Shown piece after piece: positions 1 through 30,570 of a stretch of DNA of 30,570 nucleotides. Origin of the DNA: a virus; the UHGV virus genome UHGV-0106128; one strand, given 5' to 3'. The position numbers were made by a program, and so were the translations under genes. The notes beneath the pieces are model-generated. The model worked only from the letters and a program-made list of their open reading frames with translations, had not been told where the DNA came from and ran no database searches. Within the stretch, counting starts at the first letter, position 1, and every line of letters begins with the position of its first letter.

Positions 1-103
1 GTTAGCAACGGGCTGGCTGGAAGTGTTTTTTAACCTGCTGTTCTGCGTGCTGGTGATACGCGCACGCGGGAACGTCACAAAAATCTTTCCATTGTTGAGG
101 TGA
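1..103 (+). CDS. 3' end of an upstream ORF (partial), hydrophobic C-terminus; possibly holin or other lysis membrane protein
   Basis: Open frame from position 2 ending at TGA 101-103 (...LATGWLEVFFNLLFCVLVIRARGNVTKIFPLLR); sits directly upstream of the endolysin gene; function inferred from position only. Confidence 0.3.
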   Translation, partial: LATGWLEVFFNLLFCVLVIRARGNVTKIFPLLR

Positions 104-105
104 AT

Positions 106-483
106 ATGTCGGGTAAATTCAGATTCAGCCGTCGCAGTGAAAAAAATCTGGAGGGCGTTAAACCACAGCTGGTTGCTGTCGTTCGCCGTGCGCTGGAGCT
201 GACGGAGGTTGATTTCGGTATTACGGAAGGGCTGCGCACGAAAGAACGCCAGAAACAGCTGGTCGCGGAAGGGAAAAGCCAGACCATGAACAGCCGCCAC
301 CTGACCGGTGATGCGGTGGATGTTGTTGCCTGGGTTGGCAGCCAGGTGTCATGGGACTGGCCTCTGTACGAGAAAATCGCGCAGGCATTTAAGCAGGCTG
401 CCGCAGAGCTGGGAACTGCCATCGAATGGGGCGGGGACTGGAAAACACTGAAAGACGGGCCTCACTTTCAGTTGAAACGCTGA
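106..483 (+). CDS. endolysin, peptidase M15 family (zinc peptidoglycan peptidase of the VanY/L-alanyl-D-glutamate peptidase type)
   Basis: ORF track 100..483; ATG 106 preceded by GAGG 97-100; motifs SRHLTGDAVD and GGDW...DGPHFQ fit the His-Asp-His zinc site of M15 endolysins. Confidence 0.85.
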   Translation: MSGKFRFSRRSEKNLEGVKPQLVAVVRRALELTEVDFGITEGLRTKERQKQLVAEGKSQTMNSRHLTGDAVDVVAWVGSQVSWDWPLYEKIAQAFKQAAAELGTAIEWGGDWKTLKDGPHFQLKR

Positions 484-1083: not shown

Positions 1084-1875
1084 ATGAGCGAGAAATTGAA
1101 GATCGTCTATCGCCCGTTACAAGAACTATCTCCGTATGCACACAATGCCAGGACACACAGCCCTGAGCAGGTGGCACAACTGGTAGAAAGCATTAAGCAA
1201 TTCGGCTGGACTAATCCAGTGCTGATTGATGAAAAGGGCGAAATTATTGCGGGTCACGGTCGTGTTATGGCGGCTGAAGTGCTCAAAATGGATTCGGTTC
1301 CGGTCATTGTTCTGTCTGGTCTGACGGATGACCAAAAAAAGGCGTACCGCCTGGCAGATAATCGCCTGCCGATGAATGCTGGCTGGGATGAAGATCTGTT
1401 ACGGATGGAGCTGTCGGACCTAATCAATGCTGATTTTGATGTCTCCCTGACAGGATTCAGCCCAACAGAAATTGATGAATTGTTGACGGATGTTTTGCCA
1501 GGTACAGGAAATGAGGAGGAGCCGTACACGACGAAAATTGATACGCCTGTTTATGAGCCGTCAGGCGATAAACCGGATATCAGTGAACTGTGCGACGATA
1601 CGAAAACTCAGGAGCTGGTCAGCCGGATACGTTCGGCGTCCCTTGAGCCTGATATCGAAAAATTCCTCCTGTGCGCGGCAGAACGTCACACGGTGTTTAA
1701 TTTCAGCAGAATTGCGGACTATTACGCTCACGCCCCCGCTGAAATTCAGAACCTTTTTGAGGAGTCGGCGCTGGTGATCATTGATTATCAGCAGGCTATT
1801 GAAAATGGATTTGTCCGGATGACGCAGCGCATGGTGGAGATCATGCATGGCGGGGAGGAGGAGGAATATGCGTGA
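1084..1875 (+). CDS. ParB-like nuclease domain (ParB/Srx fold) protein
   Basis: ORF track; GAGG 1074-1077 then ATG 1084; N-terminal region VYRPLQELSPYAHNARTHSPEQVAQLVESIKQFGWTNPVLIDEKGEIIAGHGRVMAA matches the ParB N-terminal domain pattern including the GxGR box. Confidence 0.8.
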   Translation: MSEKLKIVYRPLQELSPYAHNARTHSPEQVAQLVESIKQFGWTNPVLIDEKGEIIAGHGRVMAAEVLKMDSVPVIVLSGLTDDQKKAYRLADNRLPMNAGWDEDLLRMELSDLINADFDVSLTGFSPTEIDELLTDVLPGTGNEEEPYTTKIDTPVYEPSGDKPDISELCDDTKTQELVSRIRSASLEPDIEKFLLCAAERHTVFNFSRIADYYAHAPAEIQNLFEESALVIIDYQQAIENGFVRMTQRMVEIMHGGEEEEYA

Positions 1876-2800
1876 TGATTTTTGCGCCTTTATTCTGACT
1901 CACGGGCGCCCGGACAAAGTTCTGACTTACCGGACGTTGCGTCGTGCTGGCTATACCGGAAAAGTTTTTATCGTTGTTGATGATGAAGATAAGACACGGC
2001 ATCAGTACATAGCTGAATTTGGTGAACAGGTGCTGGTGTTTTCCAAAGCCGATATAGCCAGTCGTTTTGACGAAGCCGATAATTTCGGTGATCGCCGCTC
2101 AATTTTTTACGCCCGTAATGCCTGTTTCGACCTGGCAAAACTGGTCGGGTGTAAATACTTCATTCAGCTCGATGATGATTATCACGAGTTCCAGTTTCGG
2201 GTGGATCGCAACTATGACCAGGCCTATTTCCCGATAAGAAAACTGGATGCGATCCTTTCTGAAATGCTGGCGTACTACGAATCAATACCTGCGCTTTCCA
2301 TCGCTATGTCGCAGGGCGGGGATTTTCTTGGTGACAATGGCGGCCATGCTTCGTGGGTGAAACGCAAGGCAATGAACAGCTTTATCTGTTCGGTTGATCG
2401 ACCGTTCTCATTCATGGGGCGCATTAACGAGGATGTGAATACGTACACGAATCTCGGTCGCTGTGGTGAATTGTTTATGACGATCGGTGCTGTCCAGTTA
2501 GGGCAGAAACAGACGCAGAAAAACAGCGGCGGAATGACCGAGCTGTATCTGGATTCCGGAACCTACGTTAAAAGTTTTTACTCCGTCATGTATGCGCCCT
2601 CGTGCGTAAAAATCTCACTGATGGGGGCCAGCCATAAACGCATTCACCATCAGGTCACCTGGAACAACGCTGCAGTAAAAATCCTTCACGAAAAATACAG
2701 GAAGAAGACACCCTGCATATCAATGGGGGTGACAAATGATTCCGTATTCGAAAGTCGAGTCTCTGGCAGCGTGCCGGATGACTGCACAACAAATCGCTGA
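1868..2800 (+). CDS. GT-A fold (GT2-like) glycosyltransferase, substrate unknown
   Basis: ATG 1868 preceded by GGGGAGGAGGAGGAA 1853-1866 (the ORF-track start 1847 is less likely); motifs FILTHGRPD, KVFIVVDDEDKT and ARNACFDLAKLVGCKYFIQLDDDY fit the GT2 pattern (IIPTYN-like, VVDDgStD-like, arNxGxxxAxGxYixfLDaDD-like). Confidence 0.6.
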   Translation: MRDDFCAFILTHGRPDKVLTYRTLRRAGYTGKVFIVVDDEDKTRHQYIAEFGEQVLVFSKADIASRFDEADNFGDRRSIFYARNACFDLAKLVGCKYFIQLDDDYHEFQFRVDRNYDQAYFPIRKLDAILSEMLAYYESIPALSIAMSQGGDFLGDNGGHASWVKRKAMNSFICSVDRPFSFMGRINEDVNTYTNLGRCGELFMTIGAVQLGQKQTQKNSGGMTELYLDSGTYVKSFYSVMYAPSCVKISLMGASHKRIHHQVTWNNAAVKILHEKYRKKTPCISMGVTNDSVFESRVSGSVPDDCTTNR

Positions 2801-2987
2801 CGTTCTGGATGTTGATCTGAACCGACTGAAAGAAAATCGGGAAGCAATGACAGATTTTTACGCATCCATCCGTAAGGGCAGAGCGAAAGGTGAAGCCGAA
2901 CTACGGGCGGCATTGTTTAAGCTTGCCAGAAAAGGGGATGCCTTTGCCCTGCGTGAACTACTCAGGGTGGATAAAAATCAGGACTAA
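2736..2987 (+). CDS. small HTH-like protein, possible DNA-binding or packaging accessory protein
   Basis: ORF track; GGGGGTGA before ATG 2736; MTAQQIADVLDVD resembles a helix-turn-helix; function not established. Confidence 0.45.
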   Translation: MIPYSKVESLAACRMTAQQIADVLDVDLNRLKENREAMTDFYASIRKGRAKGEAELRAALFKLARKGDAFALRELLRVDKNQD

Positions 2988-2990
2988 CTG

Positions 2991-4082
2991 ATGAGCAGAC
3001 CGGACTGGGGGGCGTTGCAGCAGGAATATATTGCTGAATACACCCGCTCCGGTGTATCTCCGGTGGCATGGTGTGAGGCAAGGGGACTGAATTACGCAAC
3101 AGCCCGTCGTTACATCAAAAAACCTCCGAAAAATGCGCAGACAGAAATGCGCAAAACTGCGCAACAAAGTGCGCAGAAAAAATCTGCGCAGACTGCGCAA
3201 AAGCGGAACGGAAAATCTCAGAAAAAAAAGCCAGTATCCGATGCGTGCCTGAATGAGGGCGACGCGGAGGAATTTTCGTTCTGCCCCGATGAATTCGGCA
3301 TTTCTGACCAGCAGGCTAAGTTTGCGATGCTTGTTGCTCAGGGGAAAAAGCCGACAGAGGCATACCGACTGGCTGGTTATGAGGGGCAAGGTGCGACAGC
3401 TAACAGCAACGCCAGCCGTATGCTTAGAAATGCCAGGGTTTATCGTGCTATCAGCTACTTCCGCAATCAGTATCAGAAACGCTATACCGCAGACCTGGAT
3501 TTACTGGTGAGTCAGTTGATGGCTATTGTCCAGGCCGACCCCAATCAGTTGGCACAATTTCGCCGTGTTAACTGCCGTTATTGCTGGGGCGAGAATCATC
3601 TCTACCAGTGGCGTGATATTGCAGAATTCGATAAGGCAGCGGCACAGGCCTCCAGAGATGGCAAACCCGAGCCGGAATATGGAGGCCTCGGCTTTGTTGA
3701 TAACGCCATACCCAATCCGGATTGTCCGAAGTGCTGCGGTGAGGGAACGGGACAGCTTTATATGGCTGATACCACTCTGCTTGATGGGGATGCGCGACAA
3801 TTATATGCAGGGGCAAAGCTCGGGAAATTTGGTGTTGAGATCCTGCTGGAGGATAAGGCTGCCGCCCGGCGCGAACTTATCAAGCTGATAATGGCGACGA
3901 AAGGAAGTTCTGCTGGTGGTGCAACTGACAGTCGCAATGATCTGGAGCTTGAAGGACTGAGGCTTCGCAACGAAAAGCTGCGCACTGAGATTGAAAACCT
4001 CAAAAAAGGCGTGGGTGGTGAGAATAACGAAATAATTATCCACAACTCTCTGCCGATGCCGGGAGTGGATAATGTCGATTGA
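2991..4082 (+). CDS. terminase small subunit (P27-type), with a C-terminal Cys4 cluster and coiled coil
   Basis: ORF track; AGGA then ATG 2991; N-terminal HTH; segment QQAKFAMLVAQGKKPTEAYRLAGYEGQGATANSNASRMLRNARV resembles the terminase small-subunit core; lies directly upstream of and overlapping the large subunit. Confidence 0.7.
   Translation: MSRPDWGALQQEYIAEYTRSGVSPVAWCEARGLNYATARRYIKKPPKNAQTEMRKTAQQSAQKKSAQTAQKRNGKSQKKKPVSDACLNEGDAEEFSFCPDEFGISDQQAKFAMLVAQGKKPTEAYRLAGYEGQGATANSNASRMLRNARVYRAISYFRNQYQKRYTADLDLLVSQLMAIVQADPNQLAQFRRVNCRYCWGENHLYQWRDIAEFDKAAAQASRDGKPEPEYGGLGFVDNAIPNPDCPKCCGEGTGQLYMADTTLLDGDARQLYAGAKLGKFGVEILLEDKAAARRELIKLIMATKGSSAGGATDSRNDLELEGLRLRNEKLRTEIENLKKGVGGENNEIIIHNSLPMPGVDNVD
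3134..3199. repeat. array of six TGCGCA hexamers at 9-15 bp spacing inside the terminase small-subunit gene
   Basis: TGCGCA at 3134, 3148, 3158, 3170, 3185 and 3194; encodes the Q/K/A-rich linker TEMRKTAQQSAQKKSAQTAQK. Confidence 0.6.
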
Positions 4083-5400
4083 AATCTACCTCCCAAAACC
4101 TCATGAGGGGCAAATAGCTGCATGGACGGCGGCAATAGAGGAACGCTTCCACGCGGTATGCTGTGGTCGTCGCTGGGGTAAAACGGTGATGCTGGTAAAC
4201 ATCGCTACCAGTTTCGCTACGCGGAAATTTGCCGTTCCTACCACCGGGCAACTTATCGCGGGTAGGGTGGGGATTTTTACCGCACAATACCGCCAGTACC
4301 AGGAAATCTGGGATGAAATTAGCGCCGTTCTGCAACCGCTGATCCTCAGCCAGTCAAAAAATGAAAAGCGCATTATTCTCCGTAATGGGGGGCGCATCGA
4401 CTTTTGGGTAACGGACAATAACAAACTGGCCGGGCGTGGGCGTAAATATCACGCTGTGCTGATTGATGAGGCAGCATTCACTAAATCGCCGGAAATGCTC
4501 GAGGAAATCTGGCCCCGAGCTATACGCCCGACGCTTGTCGATTACCGCGGCTGTGCGTGGGTATTTTCCACACCAAACGGTATCGACGAGAGCAATTTTT
4601 TCTACGCGATATGCCACGATGAATCCCTGGGATTTGTCATGCACCATGCGCCAACTTCATCGAATCCGTATATTCCGAAAGAAGAACTGGAGGAAACGGA
4701 GAAGAAATCCGATCCGCGCGTCTGGCAGCAGGAATATCTTGCAGAGTTCGTGGACTGGTCCAAAGACGCGTTACTCGATGTCGATAAGCTGCTGGTGGAC
4801 GGTCAGCCGATTGAGATGCCGCCGTACTGCGACATGATTTTCGCAGTGATGGATACGGCGCTGAAAGGCGGGACCGAAAATGATGGTACTGGCGTGGTGT
4901 ATTTCGCTTATGAGTCAACGTATTCGGACGAGCCAAAACTGACGATTATTGACTGGGATGTGACGCAAATTAAAGCGTCATTGCTTCCTGAATATATCCC
5001 CGGCGTTTATGACAACCTCGAGCGCCTCGCGAAATTATGCCGTCCGCGTCTGGGCTGCCAGGGCATTTTTATGGAAGACGCCGCGATGGGGGCAATCCTC
5101 AACCAGAAGGCGGAAACCGAAGGCTGGGATATGACGCCGATTAAATCGGCACTAACCAGCAAAGGTAAAGACGAACGGGCGGTGATGGCATCCAGCTACC
5201 ACTATCAGGGGATGTGCAAAATCGTCCGGGAGGCTTACGACAAGACCGTTTCATTCAAACGTACCACCGCAAACCACCTCATAAAACAAATCGCCGGATT
5301 CCACCTGGCGGATAAAAACGCGCATAAACGTGCTGATGACCTTTTCGATTGTTACACCTATGGGTTGATCATCGCGCACGGTAATTACGCGGCGTTGTAA
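4072..5400 (+). CDS. terminase large subunit
   Basis: ORF track; Walker A-like CCGRRWGKT, Walker B-like AVLIDEAA, C-terminal nuclease-like region; overlaps the small-subunit stop (ATG 4072, TGA 4080-4082). Confidence 0.9.
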   Translation: MSIEIYLPKPHEGQIAAWTAAIEERFHAVCCGRRWGKTVMLVNIATSFATRKFAVPTTGQLIAGRVGIFTAQYRQYQEIWDEISAVLQPLILSQSKNEKRIILRNGGRIDFWVTDNNKLAGRGRKYHAVLIDEAAFTKSPEMLEEIWPRAIRPTLVDYRGCAWVFSTPNGIDESNFFYAICHDESLGFVMHHAPTSSNPYIPKEELEETEKKSDPRVWQQEYLAEFVDWSKDALLDVDKLLVDGQPIEMPPYCDMIFAVMDTALKGGTENDGTGVVYFAYESTYSDEPKLTIIDWDVTQIKASLLPEYIPGVYDNLERLAKLCRPRLGCQGIFMEDAAMGAILNQKAETEGWDMTPIKSALTSKGKDERAVMASSYHYQGMCKIVREAYDKTVSFKRTTANHLIKQIAGFHLADKNAHKRADDLFDCYTYGLIIAHGNYAAL

Positions 5401-5418
5401 AAAATCAGGATATTTTTG

Positions 5419-6855
5419 ATGGCAGAGATCGAGATTACTGGCGGCCTCGGTTCAGCACTGATGCGTATTCTTGAGGCTGAAGAAATTCAGCCGGGAACCG
5501 ATATTGGCTATGAATTGTGTAAGCTGCTGTGGCAATTCCATCCTCTGGGCGGAAAACTTGTCGAAAAACCCATACTTATGGCGATGTGTAAGCCGCGTCA
5601 GTACAACGTGGAGACAGACCCTGACGAGCGGGTTGTGCGGCGTTTCCAGGAGGTATGGGAACGTATGAAGGTTAACGAGAAGATTAAAAATCTGTTTTTT
5701 CTGTCTCGTTGCTACGGTGCCGCAGCGATCGGCGTGGGCACCGACAGTGTTCCATGTCGTGAGCCGCTTCCGACATTCGGACTGACAGAAGATGATGTGT
5801 ATATCAACGCGTGGGACCCGTTGAACGCTTCTGGTTCGATGGTGACTGACCAGAACCCAAACAGCCCGTTTTTCCAGGAAGCCAATAAAAAGCTGAAGAT
5901 TGGCGGAAAAGACTGGCATCCGTCACGCACACTGAAAATTTTCAATGGCACACCGATTTATCTGGAGTTTCAGAGTTCATCGTTCGGATTCACCGGGCGA
6001 AGCGTGTTTCAGCGTGTTCTTTATTCCCTGAAATCCTATATCAATACGATGGAGGCGAATGATCTCGTCAGCCAGAAGGCAGGCGTACTGGTGGCTAAAG
6101 TTGTGCAGTATGGTTCGAAACTTGACGGGATCATGGCTGCCGCCACGGGACGAAAAAGGGAAAATGTCAAAGAGGCAAAAAATAAAGGTGTGCTTAGTAT
6201 CGGGAAGGATGAGGACGTTACCTCGCTGAATTTACAAAACATCGATGGCGCGCTAAATGCCGCCCGCGACAACATTATTTCTGATATTGCATCAGGTAGC
6301 GATGTTCCCGCGATTCTCATCAAGGAGGAGGCTTTCTCGAATGGTTTCGGTGAAGGAACTGAGGATTCGAAAGCTATCAGCCAGTATATCGATGGTGTAC
6401 GCCAGCAGATTGAACCTGTGATGGATTATTTCGAACGCCTGGTGCAGTACATCGCCTGGAACGAGGAATTTTATCAGTCGCTGAAAAATGATTACCCGGA
6501 CATCATAACTGATGACTATAAAACCACGTTTTACCAGTGGCGACGTGAATTTACCGCGACATGGCAGGAGCTGGTGGAGGAGTCGCCGGACAAACGCCGG
6601 GAAAGCGACAGTAAAGTGATTCAACAGGCGATAGCACTTTTCTCTGCCGTGTCGCCACAGGTTGATCCTGAAAACCGTGCCGCCGTCACTGAATGGCTGG
6701 CAAGCCTTGTTAATGCCACGCAAACCTATGGCGAAGCTCCACTCATCATTGATGTGGACGCGCTGGCGAATTATGAACCACCGAAGCAGGAGACGCCTGA
6801 TGGCAATTTCCAGCCGGGCGGTGAGGAAGAAGAAACGGATCAGGACGCTGTATGA
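5419..6855 (+). CDS. portal protein (putative)
   Basis: ORF track 5416..6855; AGGA 5407-5410 then ATG 5419; size (478 aa), position directly after the large terminase, acidic C-terminus. Confidence 0.65.
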   Translation: MAEIEITGGLGSALMRILEAEEIQPGTDIGYELCKLLWQFHPLGGKLVEKPILMAMCKPRQYNVETDPDERVVRRFQEVWERMKVNEKIKNLFFLSRCYGAAAIGVGTDSVPCREPLPTFGLTEDDVYINAWDPLNASGSMVTDQNPNSPFFQEANKKLKIGGKDWHPSRTLKIFNGTPIYLEFQSSSFGFTGRSVFQRVLYSLKSYINTMEANDLVSQKAGVLVAKVVQYGSKLDGIMAAATGRKRENVKEAKNKGVLSIGKDEDVTSLNLQNIDGALNAARDNIISDIASGSDVPAILIKEEAFSNGFGEGTEDSKAISQYIDGVRQQIEPVMDYFERLVQYIAWNEEFYQSLKNDYPDIITDDYKTTFYQWRREFTATWQELVEESPDKRRESDSKVIQQAIALFSAVSPQVDPENRAAVTEWLASLVNATQTYGEAPLIIDVDALANYEPPKQETPDGNFQPGGEEEETDQDAV

Positions 6856-20890: not shown

Positions 20891-20905
20891 ATGGAGGAGA
20901 CAAGC

Positions 20906-22066
20906 ATGGAAAATTTTGCAAATAAGTTAAAAATACACACAGAGCATGTTGCAAAAATGGGGGTGTTTTGTACAACTGAAGAAACGACAAAACAAGCACT
21001 CATTATGCCATTTCTAGATATTCTTGGTTTTACTCCGTATGATCCAAGAAAAGTCAAAGCTGAGTATAGTGCTGACTTCCCCGGGGTTAAGGCTAATGAA
21101 CGGGTTGATTACGCTTTATTTTGTCATGATGTTCCTGTGATGTTCATTGAGGCGAAATCGTTTTCAGAACAAATTGATAATCACTGCCCACAGCTATCAA
21201 GATATTTTAATTCAACACCGGAAGTTACTATATCAGCCATTACAAATGGTGTTGAATGGCGTTTTTTTACGGATTTGAAACAAAAAAACATAATGGATTC
21301 AACGCCGTTTTTAAAAATAAGAATGGATTCTCTAACTCACTCCGATATTACACAATTATTTCGTTTTCGTTATGATAAATTCAAACCAGAGGCTTTGCGG
21401 ACACTGGCTGAAGAAAGTGTTTATTTGAATTCATTTACTAAAACAATCAGTTCTAGTCTTCGTGAAGTTGATCTGGAGTTTGTTCGATATGTTGCTAGTC
21501 GTTCAAATATTGAGAGACAACTTAATCAGAGATTTCTTGAGTTCGTGACTCCATTAGTTAAACAGGCCGTTGAGCGCGCTGTTAGCGCAATGGTGGTTTC
21601 CGGGCTATCTACACAACCGGTAGAGCAAACTAAAGAAAATGATGCAACGGATACACAAGTTAATAACGCCATTGTTGATGAAGAAAACCCCAACATAATA
21701 ACCACAGCCAAAGAATTGGAACTATTTGAAAGGGTAAAACAAATCATACAAACAGAAGATAATATAGAATATAAAGATACTGAGTCATATTTTGGTGTAC
21801 TATTGAATGGTAAAACTAATAGATGGCTGTTAAGATTTTATGATAAAAAATCTTCATTTATAACATTACCTATTTCGCTTAGTGAAGTTCAGTTGAATGA
21901 AATAAGACGAGCTCGACTTGATACGGATGGTAAAAGGATACATATAACTAATCCGGAAGATATACTTCGCATATCTGGTTTGATTCTGGATTCATACGAG
22001 TATGTTAAAAATGATGATAATTTCCGCCGAGGGTCCAGAGTGAGCAGTTTAGAAGAGGTTGAATAA
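20906..22066 (+). CDS. 386-aa protein with N-terminal PD-(D/E)xK nuclease-like domain (type I restriction HsdR N-terminal-like); C-terminal ~250 aa unassigned; candidate defence gene
   Basis: ORF track 20891..22066; GGAGGAG 20893-20899 then ATG 20906; visibly AT-rich; motifs PFLDILGF, ERVDYALF and VMFIEAKS (D68, E82, K84); flanked by a promoter-like sequence and an intrinsic terminator. Confidence 0.75.
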   Translation: MENFANKLKIHTEHVAKMGVFCTTEETTKQALIMPFLDILGFTPYDPRKVKAEYSADFPGVKANERVDYALFCHDVPVMFIEAKSFSEQIDNHCPQLSRYFNSTPEVTISAITNGVEWRFFTDLKQKNIMDSTPFLKIRMDSLTHSDITQLFRFRYDKFKPEALRTLAEESVYLNSFTKTISSSLREVDLEFVRYVASRSNIERQLNQRFLEFVTPLVKQAVERAVSAMVVSGLSTQPVEQTKENDATDTQVNNAIVDEENPNIITTAKELELFERVKQIIQTEDNIEYKDTESYFGVLLNGKTNRWLLRFYDKKSSFITLPISLSEVQLNEIRRARLDTDGKRIHITNPEDILRISGLILDSYEYVKNDDNFRRGSRVSSLEEVE

Positions 22067-27980: not shown

Positions 27981-28934
27981 TCAACAGTTACTAGTGTGTT
28001 TCTTGTTATAATCGTCAAGTAAAAAATCTTTGTGTTTTTCAGCCAGTAAACCTACTTCCCCCCATTTCAAAATATGTGTCCAGTATCCCATGCCGACAGA
28101 TGATATTGGAGCGTAAAAAATAATAATTCTATTTTTTGCATTTTCGTCCGTTATACCACGAGAAATTGCAGTGTTATTTTCTATTCGCACTCTGAAATCA
28201 GGATAATAACAAGAACCTTTTAATTTTAACCATACGGTTGAATGATTAGTATGTTGTTCTATTGAACTTATTTCACCAAAATAAAACCCCGGTTCTTCTT
28301 GTTCAGAGCGGATATCAGAAATACTTTTTAATGCATCGCAAAAAATATAACTGCGAGCGAGACTAGTGCCAGTGGTGATAAATATCTCTTTATAGTAGTT
28401 TTCTTGAAAGTTAGTACATAGAGCTTGCACGCTTGTTATCTTACTGGGCAGATTGAATGTTTCACCTTGATGACGAGAGATGGGAATTTCAACAAATACC
28501 CCATTTTTACTTTCAAAGTACATTTCCGTTCGAGTGGCGGAAGAATCTGTATTATCACGATATACAAGTTCTGGTCGTTCCTGCATGAATCCGGATATGA
28601 TAATGACATCATTGTCGCTAACAGCTTTTTGGGCTTCTTCTTCACTAGAATAGCGTTTCCCGATAATAGCTCCGCTTCTCAACAAACAAAAAGGAGCATT
28701 TGGATTTGGGTAGTGGCGGAAGAGAGCTTCTCGCCCGTCAGTCATAATCGTTATACTTGACTCTGATGGTATACGATTAAGTGGCTCATAACATTGGGGA
28801 CAAATGAGATGATCTTTCATTTCTTCTTGATATTCTAATGGTCCAACACTTGTACGAACTAACTGTGCTGTACTGTGTATGCTTTTATCCCATACAGGAT
28901 CGAAATAAGCATAGGCAATGCGGCGGCTAGTCAT
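27981..28934 (-). CDS. hypothetical 317-aa protein, AT-rich orphan cargo at the prophage end; no recognisable domain
   Basis: ORF track; minus-strand ATG at 28934 with GGAG 8 nt upstream; visibly AT-rich codon usage unlike the structural genes; single CPQC motif. Confidence 0.7.
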   Translation of the reverse strand: MTSRRIAYAYFDPVWDKSIHSTAQLVRTSVGPLEYQEEMKDHLICPQCYEPLNRIPSESSITIMTDGREALFRHYPNPNAPFCLLRSGAIIGKRYSSEEEAQKAVSDNDVIIISGFMQERPELVYRDNTDSSATRTEMYFESKNGVFVEIPISRHQGETFNLPSKITSVQALCTNFQENYYKEIFITTGTSLARSYIFCDALKSISDIRSEQEEPGFYFGEISSIEQHTNHSTVWLKLKGSCYYPDFRVRIENNTAISRGITDENAKNRIIIFYAPISSVGMGYWTHILKWGEVGLLAEKHKDFLLDDYNKKHTSNC

Positions 28935-29492: not shown

Positions 29493-30008
<516 letters not shown>

Positions 30009-30067: not shown

Positions 30068-30570
30068 TTAGAACTGATAAACCAGACCTAAAGCGACAAT
30101 ATCATCGGTAGAGATGCCGTTGGCAGCGTAGAAGCTGTCATCTTCATCCAACAGGTTGATTTTATAGTCAACATAGGTGGACATGTTTTTATTGAAATAG
30201 TAAGTCGCGCCAACATCGGCGTATTTAACCAGATCTTTATCATCAACACCTGCCGGGTTGTCTGCACCACCGGCAGCGTGCAGGTCACGGCCTTTAGACA
30301 TCAGGAAAGAGACTGCCGGACGCAGACCAAAATCAAACTGGTACTGTGCAGTAACTTCAAAGTTCTGGGTTTTGTTAGCAACAGCATAATCGCTGTCGCC
30401 AAACGGGGTCATATTACGCGTTTCTGAATACATGGTTGCCAGGTAAATATTGTTAGCATCGTATTTTAGCCCAGCAGTCCACGCGTCTGCTTTATCACCA
30501 CCCGCCGCAGTATGGTTAACCTGGTCATTGGTGCGGTCAGAAGAGGTGTATGCCGCACCAGCGCTAAAGC
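30068..30570 (-). CDS. ompN: outer membrane porin, 3' part only (OmpC/OmpN family); gene continues beyond the window
   Basis: C-terminus ...[16 protein letters not shown] and beta-barrel pattern typical of general porins; adjacency to uspF suggests ompN; stop TAA at 30068-30070 on the minus strand. Confidence 0.6.

Follow-up and report, generated by a model that had tools for sequence, protein, structure and literature searches.

A TAGT-family glycosyltransferase coupled to a ParB-like helper upstream of phage terminase genes: a candidate helper-dependent DNA glycosyltransferase

The viral genome UHGV-0106128 (30,570 nt; the whole stretch analysed, referred to here as the window) represents the late region of a Rac-like Escherichia coli prophage. 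Two overlapping genes on its plus strand are the subject of this report: a ParB-like gene, here called the helper gene (1084..1875; 263 aa, isoelectric point (pI) 4.45), and a gene for a glycosyltransferase (GT) of the TAGT family (1868..2800; 310 aa). Both open reading frames (ORFs) were uninterrupted, and the gene pair was 100% identical to that of E. coli GmM062, in which intR, xisR, ralR, recET and kilR lie upstream. The two genes share 8 nt, with the ATG at 1868 located within the final three codons of the helper gene (stop codon TGA, 1873-1875). A further in-frame ATG is present upstream at 1847; the start at 1868, which is also the RefSeq start, was favoured because it is preceded by a Shine-Dalgarno-like purine-rich run (GGGGAGGAGGAGGAA, 1852..1866, plus strand) that ends 1 nt before it. 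This run is encoded in the codons of the helper's acidic tail, and the GT gene is therefore considered translationally coupled to the helper gene. Overlapping stop and start codons were also observed in phi jlb1, HHTV-2, c5, a Porphyromonas phage and metagenomic loci. No sigma-70-like promoter was predicted upstream of the pair, which was therefore taken as part of the late transcript.

The GT matched the Pfam family TAGT (PF20691) over aa 8-222 with 120.9 bits against a cut-off of 27.5 (E 9e-35), its sole Pfam match at E<=0.1. It also matched, over its full length, PHROG 842 (3e-103), which is named after the T2/T6 beta-glucosyl-HMC-alpha-glucosyltransferase, and RefSeq names it 'GREB1-related protein'. 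TAGT stands for 'TET-associated glycosyltransferase', and the family includes the T2/T6 beta-glucosyl-HMC-alpha-glucosyltransferase, the kinetoplastid JGT, and GREB1. An earlier reading made from the letters and translations of the window (the sequence-only reading) had called the protein GT2-like and proposed a profile search; the search did place it in a GT family, but that family is TAGT, which has a GT-A fold. Membership of GT2 was rejected, as no PF00535 match was obtained at E<=0.1 and GT2 structures appeared merely as general GT-A neighbours.

The three sequence blocks on which that reading had relied, FILTHGRPD (aa 8-16), IVVDDED (aa 35-41) and FIQLDDDY (aa 98-105), are present, and their key residues were invariant among 18 aligned sequences, down to 59% identity. 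Three active-site elements are encoded on the plus strand: R14 (1907..1909), the DxD metal/nucleotide-sugar binding motif D102-D103-D104 (2171..2179) and N187-E-D-V-N191 (2426..2440). The first two were invariant in the alignments, as were N187, E188, D189 and V190 of the third, and N191 was nearly so; R14, D102-D104 and E188-D189 remained invariant in alignments reaching 25% identity. An R...DDD...ED(Y/F) active-site signature has been defined for phage DNA GT-A enzymes and JGT (bioRxiv 10.1101/2023.12.21.572611). The GT combines a GT-A fold with this signature, though its third motif reads EDV rather than ED(Y/F). The catalytic motifs are intact, and the enzyme would use a nucleotide sugar.

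With a pI of 9.6, the C-terminal half of the protein is basic, and many of its aromatic and basic residues are invariant. Homologues stop near aa 287-290, and the final ~23 aa form a non-conserved tail that overlaps the next ORF. The protein is conserved at ~40-50% identity among viruses of E. coli, Lactobacillus, Nocardia and Haloarcula; a PDB sequence search found no relative, and a PADLOC scan of the pair gave no match for the GT. The maximum 19-residue Kyte-Doolittle mean was 1.08, with no membrane segment evident. The GT thus resembles a soluble enzyme, as the sequence-only reading had held, unlike the membrane-bound Gtr modifiers; Gtr-type O-antigen modification (GtrA/GtrB/GtrC) was rejected based on the lack of a hydrophobic segment, the lack of a Gtr-family match and the late-operon position beside the terminase.

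The helper matched PHROG 620 over its full length (E 1e-89), whereas its match to Pfam ParB_N (PF02195) was marginal (28.7 bits vs a cut-off of 26.3, E 1.4e-6); its RefSeq name is 'ParB/Srx family N-terminal domain-containing protein / ynaK'. Foldseek and a HMMER alignment assigned the stretch at 1084..1488 (plus strand) to a ParB-CTPase-fold nucleotide-binding domain (NBD, aa 1-100) followed by a helix-helix segment (aa 101-135). With the ParB domain as query, Foldseek returned Noc, ParB, PadC and KorB at E 2e-6 to 1e-4, and the GHGR of the helper aligned with the GERR of Spo0J. All three nucleoside triphosphate (NTP)-site boxes of the ParB/Srx fold (I, N-x-R; II, G-x-x-R; III, D/E-N) are present; the putative NTP-binding residues are N21, G57-H-G59-R60 and D92-N93, of which N21, G57, G59, R60, D92 and N93 were invariant. 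Residues 10-145 matched the N-terminal part of the PADLOC model MTase_II (1e-38) and PHROG 498, 'DNA methyltransferase' (3e-51). By sequence similarity, the ParB domain is closest to the module that is fused to phage DNA methyltransferases.

Downstream of this domain, the helper carries the linker motif Y148-T-T-K-I-D-T-P-V-Y-E-P159 (1525..1560, plus strand; consensus Y-[TS]-x-K-x-x-x-P-x-Y-E-P), which sits in a predicted disordered acidic stretch with a predicted local distance difference test (pLDDT) score <50. Variation in the motif was almost absent across E. coli prophages and the viruses of Lactobacillus, Nocardia, Vibrio and haloarchaea. The helper ends with an acidic and helical C-terminal domain (CTD; aa 171-263, pI 4.5; 1594..1872, plus strand), for which no significant match was found in Pfam or the PDB. 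Secondary structure, pLDDT and gene adjacency together give a layout of NBD, helix-helix, disordered linker and CTD, lacking a helix-turn-helix (HTH) and encoded beside the enzyme it would serve. The maximum 19-residue Kyte-Doolittle mean of the helper was 1.37, with no membrane segment evident.

Several other identities were considered for the helper. A partition ParB was rejected: TIGR00180 scored 37 bits vs a cut-off of 58, with the N-terminal domain only, there is no HTH, and no parA is annotated in the prophage region. A hydroxylase hidden in the C-terminal half was also rejected, since this half comprises only ~115 aa, is helical and acidic and has no Pfam or PDB match; a TET/JBP domain is larger and would not fit. 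A known defence system was rejected because PADLOC gave only the MTase-type ParB-domain match on the pair. The term 'ParB-like nuclease', which stems from old annotation and was also used in the sequence-only reading, found no support beyond a generic ParB/Srx fold. In place of the intact 263-aa ORF, a 100%-identical RefSeq record (L002, 20001-20792) gives a 'ynaK' pseudogene and a separate 167-aa coding sequence (CDS). The helper gene is the full-length form of the truncated ynaK of the K-12 Rac prophage; that ynaK is a remnant of the helper gene and appears to have misled the annotation.

Of 5426 complete E. coli genomes, 1566 carried the pair or some part of it, and in 889 of these it was intact (coverage >=80%); the sequence-only reading had suggested looking for the same pair in related prophages. 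Given this recurrence and the strength of the TAGT, PHROG 842 and PHROG 620 matches, the two genes are not chance ORFs.

To characterize the association between the two genes, their neighbourhoods were compared across viruses. Among 95 non-redundant viral copies of the TAGT gene, the gene immediately upstream encoded a ParB domain with the CTD in 67, the CTD only in 12 and another TAGT in 6, the latter being later copies in tandem arrays; the CTD was thus carried by the upstream gene in 79 of the 95. The remainder were mostly ORF-calling failures resolved otherwise, plus one contig end, one reversed gene order and one 522-aa ORF. When one genome per species was considered, the helper adjoined the GT in 73 of 80 loci, the other 7 being mostly contig ends or larger overlaps; the hosts in this set include Bacteroidota, Clostridia, Veillonella, Proteobacteria, Kiritimatiellae, Planctomycetota and Saccharibacteria. 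A tblastn search of 50,697 phage records with the linker and CTD retrieved 28 records, and a TAGT was present in all 28. The CTD family comprised 1198 clusters at 50% identity, and the domain was C-terminal in nearly all of the 150 matches listed.

The linker and CTD were no less conserved than the ParB domain among E. coli prophages, Lactobacillus, Nocardia and Porphyromonas phages and the haloarchaeal virus HHTV-2. In 191-kb Vibrio phages, the TAGT gene is preceded by a CTD-only helper of 139 aa, consisting of the linker motif and CTD without a ParB domain. A single 522-aa ORF at another locus (L183, 9287-10855) encodes NBD, CTD and GT in frame, with the helper sequence running directly into the GT start MRDDF; this is either a natural fusion or a sequencing error joining two overlapping genes. 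GT and CTD distances co-varied (Mantel r 0.43, reached by 0 of 500 permutations). These comparisons identify the linker and CTD of the helper, rather than its ParB domain, as the conserved partner of the TAGT, a point that the sequence-only reading had missed. The strict adjacency, the overlap, the fusion and the CTD-only forms rule out an accidental neighbour.

Viruses that carry the module infect haloarchaea and bacteria of many phyla, and it occurs in two kinds of genomic context. In small, mostly temperate phages, the pair lies directly upstream of the terminase genes whatever the terminase family, of which at least four unrelated ones were seen (Terminase_6, Terminase_3, HK97-type TerL and lambda GpA); in the small cos phage c5 of L. 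delbrueckii, the pair forms the first two genes after cos. In the large phages pv27, L164, L227 and L229, a CTD-only helper and one to five TAGTs are located within a replication cluster, whose neighbours include DnaB, primase, SSB, PolA split by homing endonucleases, a clamp-like protein, a Holliday-junction resolvase and RecA. The CTD-only helper is followed by five TAGT paralogues in L227 (7794-13218 of a 115-kb contig) and by two in L229 (8731-10849 of a 149-kb contig), in both cases beside the split PolA and near RecA. One neighbour cluster in the large phages was considered as an epimerase and rejected as such, since it gave a weak sub-threshold match to a beta-clamp N-terminal domain. 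At locus L319 (1804-4380), the genes for the ParB-like helper and the TAGT are followed by one for an NAD-dependent sugar epimerase/dehydratase and then by TerS and TerL; this arrangement resembles known DNA-glycan pathways, and it seems that the phage itself encodes an enzyme that tailors the nucleotide sugar for the GT. Clustering of 1553 neighbour proteins from 88 non-redundant loci revealed no recurrent third gene of the module, only terminases, portals, lysis and replication genes. Terminases, capsids and hosts vary among the carriers, and only the helper and DNA are constant. A paper on HHTV-2, consulted for experimental data on its DNA, makes no mention of ParB or glycosyl genes. Four consecutive GT2-family genes were observed just downstream of the major capsid gene at locus L006 (17837-20316; also in L007), where the pair is present too; their products may glycosylate the virion.

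The pair was compared with the known systems that it most resembles. Like the T2/T6 enzyme, the GT belongs to the TAGT family, and that enzyme is a soluble phage GT-A protein whose role is to act post-replicatively on DNA. TAGTs of T4-like Aeromonas phages aligned with aa 2-263 of the GT at 23-26% identity; unlike the clade of the window, no CTD helper was detected in these phages. The T-even enzyme, in contrast, adds a second glucose to alpha-glucosyl-hydroxymethylcytosine (alpha-glucosyl-hmC) and needs a dCMP hydroxymethylase and an alpha-GT, neither of which was found here. The GT-A fold and the R...DDD...ED signature are shared with JGT and with the phage GT-As linked to 5mYOX/TET enzymes. 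These differ in having ED(Y/F) as their third motif, and the 5mYOX-linked GTs act on 5-hydroxymethylcytosine (5hmC) or 5-hydroxymethyluracil (5hmU) that a neighbouring dioxygenase produces, alone or together with a C5-methyltransferase, whereas the window clade has no such neighbour in the contexts examined. In metaviromes, 5mYOX-linked phage GTs often co-occur with ParB-like and terminase genes (bioRxiv 10.1101/2023.12.21.572611).

A precedent for the helper is ParB176. This ParB-like protein has the layout NBD-helix-helix-linker-CTD, lacks a DNA-binding domain and is required by the thymine dioxygenase 5mYOX176 on double-stranded DNA (PMC13229309). The helper resembles it in the ParB-CTPase-fold NBD, the helix-helix segment, the predicted disordered linker of ~35-50 aa, the CTD, the lack of an HTH and the conserved NTP-site residues, and ParB176, too, is encoded beside the DNA-modifying enzyme that it serves. 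The two differ in the partner, which is a dioxygenase for ParB176 and a GT for the helper; in the linker, where the helper has an invariant motif; and in the CTD, which for the helper also occurs without a ParB domain. In the ParB-DNA methyltransferase fusions, the N-terminal module is the one matched by aa 10-145 of the helper. It differs in the helper by being fused to a non-catalytic domain, with catalysis (GT) residing on a separate, translationally coupled polypeptide. Genes for the methyltransferase fusions are typically found near terminase genes. Such fusions are enriched in prophages, and the survey of ParB-CTPase proteins reporting this did not mention glycosyltransferases (PMC12704722). 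According to the paper describing GREB1, key residues of its GT domain align with those of JGT and the phage TAGTs. The proposed homology of the GT to GREB1 is based on the RefSeq name and on that alignment; GREB1, however, is a 1949-aa multidomain cytoplasmic protein of vertebrates acting on ER-alpha, whereas the GT is a stand-alone viral enzyme of 310 aa with a helper and DNA-centred contexts, and lacks the N-terminal Zn-binding and inactive helicase domains of GREB1.

Taking these data together, we favour the reading that the pair is a helper-dependent DNA glycosyltransferase acting late on phage DNA, with a probability of roughly one half. Several lines of evidence lead to this reading: the GT is a TAGT whose chemistry is intact, its helper has the ParB module also found in DNA methyltransferases, the genes lie among replisome genes or beside terminases, and ParB176 provides a precedent. 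The characterized or assigned relatives covered in the literature consulted act on DNA bases, namely the T2/T6 enzyme, JGT and the 5mYOX-linked GT-A phage GTs (bioRxiv 10.1101/2023.12.21.572611), GREB1 being the exception. In the proposed mechanism, a catalytic GT-A subunit of the TAGT family (R14, D102-D104, E188-D189) would use a nucleotide sugar in a two-component DNA-directed enzyme. The obligatory helper would bind the GT through its invariant linker motif and acidic CTD, and the basic, highly conserved C-terminal half of the GT would be the likely contact surface. In temperate phages, the ParB-type NTP-binding domain of the helper may place the enzyme on double-stranded DNA or keep it there, the part that ParB176 plays for 5mYOX176. 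Translational coupling and late-operon transcription imply that the target would be phage DNA that has been replicated and is about to be packaged or is being packaged, and the sugar mark could protect this DNA in the next host or otherwise condition it. The analysis shows the family membership, the fold, the catalytic motifs, the strict coupling, the fusion and the genomic contexts; from these we infer that DNA is the acceptor, that helper and GT are in contact, what the ParB domain does and that the function is protective.

Several results weigh against this reading, the main obstacle to DNA hypermodification being the absence of a source of hydroxymethyl-pyrimidine. All characterized TAGT-type DNA enzymes require a hydroxyl provided by 5mYOX/TET or a ThyA-like hydroxymethylase. 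The acceptors of the relatives are hydroxyls throughout: hydroxymethyluracil (hmU) for JGT, alpha-glucosyl-hmC for T2/T6, 5hmC for the 5mYOX-linked GTs and Ser/Thr of ER-alpha for GREB1. No TET/JBP dioxygenase or ThyA-like hydroxymethylase is annotated by RefSeq in the Rac-like prophage, and none was found in nine contexts with Pfam assignments for every gene. The complete 31.8-kb c5 genome (50 ORFs, the unassigned ones all <210 aa) contained no hydroxylase or hydroxymethylase, and a phmmer search with ThyA of all ORFs of ~320 loci yielded nothing beyond the ThyA of the Vibrio phage pv27. The latter was rejected as a hydroxymethylase, being a genuine thymidylate synthase beside DHFR (~100 of 191 kb inspected). 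The negative result for TET/JBP came from precomputed Pfam tables, record annotations and limited Pfam scans, not from a profile scan of every locus. Across the contexts examined, the association with a hydroxylated-base enzyme that is expected of a TAGT was not seen. About 65% of phage GT contigs also have no 5mYOX or ThyS neighbour, and such orphans were considered 'less likely' to hypermodify DNA (bioRxiv 10.1101/2023.12.21.572611). The sequence-only reading had raised an action on DNA; that idea is favoured here owing to the TAGT family, the MTase-type ParB domain and the replisome contexts, while the lack of a hydroxymethyl-pyrimidine source, which that reading had not considered, speaks against it.

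Further points on the same side concern the proteins themselves. The helper has no HTH or ParB_C match in Pfam and is strongly acidic, without a recognizable DNA-binding domain; its ParB domain is dispensable in some lineages, as the CTD-only helpers demonstrate. Mutants of the ParB176 NTP site stayed active, with little effect (PMC13229309). GREB1 is a protein O-GlcNAc transferase, so the TAGT family can glycosylate proteins. In the AlphaFold2 (AF2) models of both proteins, built from shallow alignments, the C-terminal halves were of low confidence and were therefore excluded from fold searches and surface arguments. A search of the available literature found no experimental work on this TAGT clade, and likewise no biochemical or nucleoside data.

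If no hydroxylated base is available, the enzyme would need a nucleophile of canonical DNA, which would be new chemistry. We advance only tentatively, and at odds well below even, the narrower proposal that this helper-dependent clade needs no hydroxymethyl or hydroxy precursor and attaches its sugar directly to a canonical base or to some other nucleophile native to DNA.

The main rival to a DNA-directed enzyme is a protein O- (or Tyr-) glycosyltransferase like GREB1, acting on a phage-encoded substrate. The most plausible substrate would be the helper itself, via the invariant Thr/Tyr of Y-T-x-K...P-x-Y-E-P; another protein bound by the helper is a further candidate. A docking peptide, however, explains an invariant linear motif equally well, and the contexts are centred on DNA (replisome genes, terminases and a ParB module common to DNA methyltransferases). 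The clade also aligns over nearly its full length with the TAGTs of T4-like phages, whose T2/T6 counterparts are assigned to DNA, and the tandem arrays of up to five TAGTs and the linked epimerase resemble DNA-glycan pathways. We therefore regard protein glycosylation as unlikely, although it deserves to be kept in view.

An appreciably less probable explanation is a conventional GT for hydroxymethyl-pyrimidine or glucosyl-hmC DNA, its substrate coming from an unrecognized or unlinked hydroxylase or from the hmC/hmU DNA of superinfecting phages; in the latter version, the prophage-borne module would be an anti-phage device. Such acceptors are used by all characterized DNA-acting relatives, the TET/JBP search had the limited coverage given above, and the anti-phage idea has been raised for prophage GTs (bioRxiv 10.1101/2023.12.21.572611). 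Against it, the genes follow the lysis cassette in a late operon and no sigma-70-like promoter is predicted ahead of them, so the pair should be silent in lysogens. The 50 ORFs of c5 leave no room for a hydroxylase, the module also occurs in the replication modules of large, apparently lytic phages, and the only ThyA found, that of pv27, is a true thymidylate synthase. Finally, modification of the envelope or another non-nucleic-acid glycoconjugate (lysogenic conversion, cf. Gtr, TarP), or mere consumption of nucleotide sugar, beside an unrelated ParB-like partition or nuclease gene, is very improbable, given that the GT has no signal peptide or membrane segment, that Gram-negative, Gram-positive, Bacteroidota, Actinobacteria and haloarchaeal hosts share no envelope polymer, that the gene position implies late expression, that the two genes are tied by adjacency, overlap, fusion and CTD-only forms, and that no HTH, parS or parA accompanies the ParB domain.

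The surroundings of the pair in the window agreed with the position between lysis and packaging genes described in the sequence-only reading, as did the ORFs and their overlap. All of the following genes are on the plus strand unless stated otherwise. The lysis cassette ends with an M15 endolysin (100..483; Pfam Peptidase_M15_4, PHROG 465). Downstream of the GT gene, a small HTH-like ORF (2778..2987; 69 aa from the ATG at 2778, or 83 aa from the ATG at 2736) matched PHROG 309 (1.7e-22) and is a RefSeq CDS; it resembles part of a small terminase subunit, occurs in enterobacterial relatives only and is regarded as context. TerS (2991..4082) and TerL (4072..5400) follow, matching Pfam Terminase_2 and Terminase_6N and PHROGs 51 and 2. 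In many related prophages, trkG (491 aa) is located between the lysis genes and the ParB-like gene (e.g., L001, 18388-19863), an arrangement shared by the K-12 Rac prophage; the window prophage has no trkG and instead contains ~400 bp that are apparently non-coding (680-1083). In another related prophage (L320, 2180-3332), genes for a heat-labile-enterotoxin-like A subunit (Enterotoxin_a/Scabin-like ADP-ribosyltransferase) and an LT-IIB B subunit are positioned between the lysis cassette and the ParB-TAGT pair.

Three further observations were made downstream. The product of the gene at 5416-6855 (24336-25772 in L002) matched the Pfam portal family Phage_portal_3, whereas RefSeq names it 'anti-CBASS protein Acb1 family protein'; the conflict reflects either a misannotation or a portal-related family name. 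Amid the baseplate genes, 20891-22066 encodes a 391-aa HSDR_N / HSDR_N_2 protein, called 'type I restriction endonuclease' by RefSeq. HSDR_N is the N-terminal domain of type I restriction R subunits, and the gene may be a cargo or defence gene within the tail module. Beyond the tail-fibre genes, minus-strand ORFs at 27981-28934, 29493-29999 and 30068-30433 are possible prophage cargo; the first had no Pfam or PADLOC match, and the other two had no match in PADLOC, the only scan applied to them.

Both proteins fall into families described before, TAGT and the ParB-CTPase fold, and the RefSeq names of the genes reflect this. A general link between ParB and DNA modification has been proposed earlier, a proposal attributed to Iyer et al. 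(2013). For dioxygenases, the link has been demonstrated (PMC13229309). The new part, we believe, is a TAGT clade with a dedicated linker and CTD helper and no accompanying hydroxymethyl-base pathway, spread over bacterial and archaeal viruses. In the current view, viral DNA glycosylation decorates a hydroxymethyl- or hydroxy-pyrimidine that has been made beforehand. The present GT belongs to a DNA-GT family, has intact catalytic residues and is strongly conserved, but occurs in small phage genomes without the means of making such a base. The system is accessible, consisting of two small soluble proteins and inducible E. coli prophages, including that of E. coli W.

If precursor-free glycosylation were true, it would represent a new DNA-modification chemistry in temperate phages of many bacterial phyla and of haloarchaea, carried by prophages in roughly one-sixth to one-third of complete E. 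coli genomes, and the linker and CTD would constitute a novel type of activator through which a GT-A enzyme reaches DNA. A new DNA acceptor would mean a new epigenetic or anti-restriction mark and an enzymatic tool for DNA labelling; the other outcome would be a clade of 'DNA' glycosyltransferases re-targeted to protein, as GREB1 is in animals. With either outcome, the linker and CTD domain would gain a concrete partner, and the ParB-like helper would widen the role, recognized only recently, of ParB folds as adaptors for nucleic-acid-modifying enzymes.

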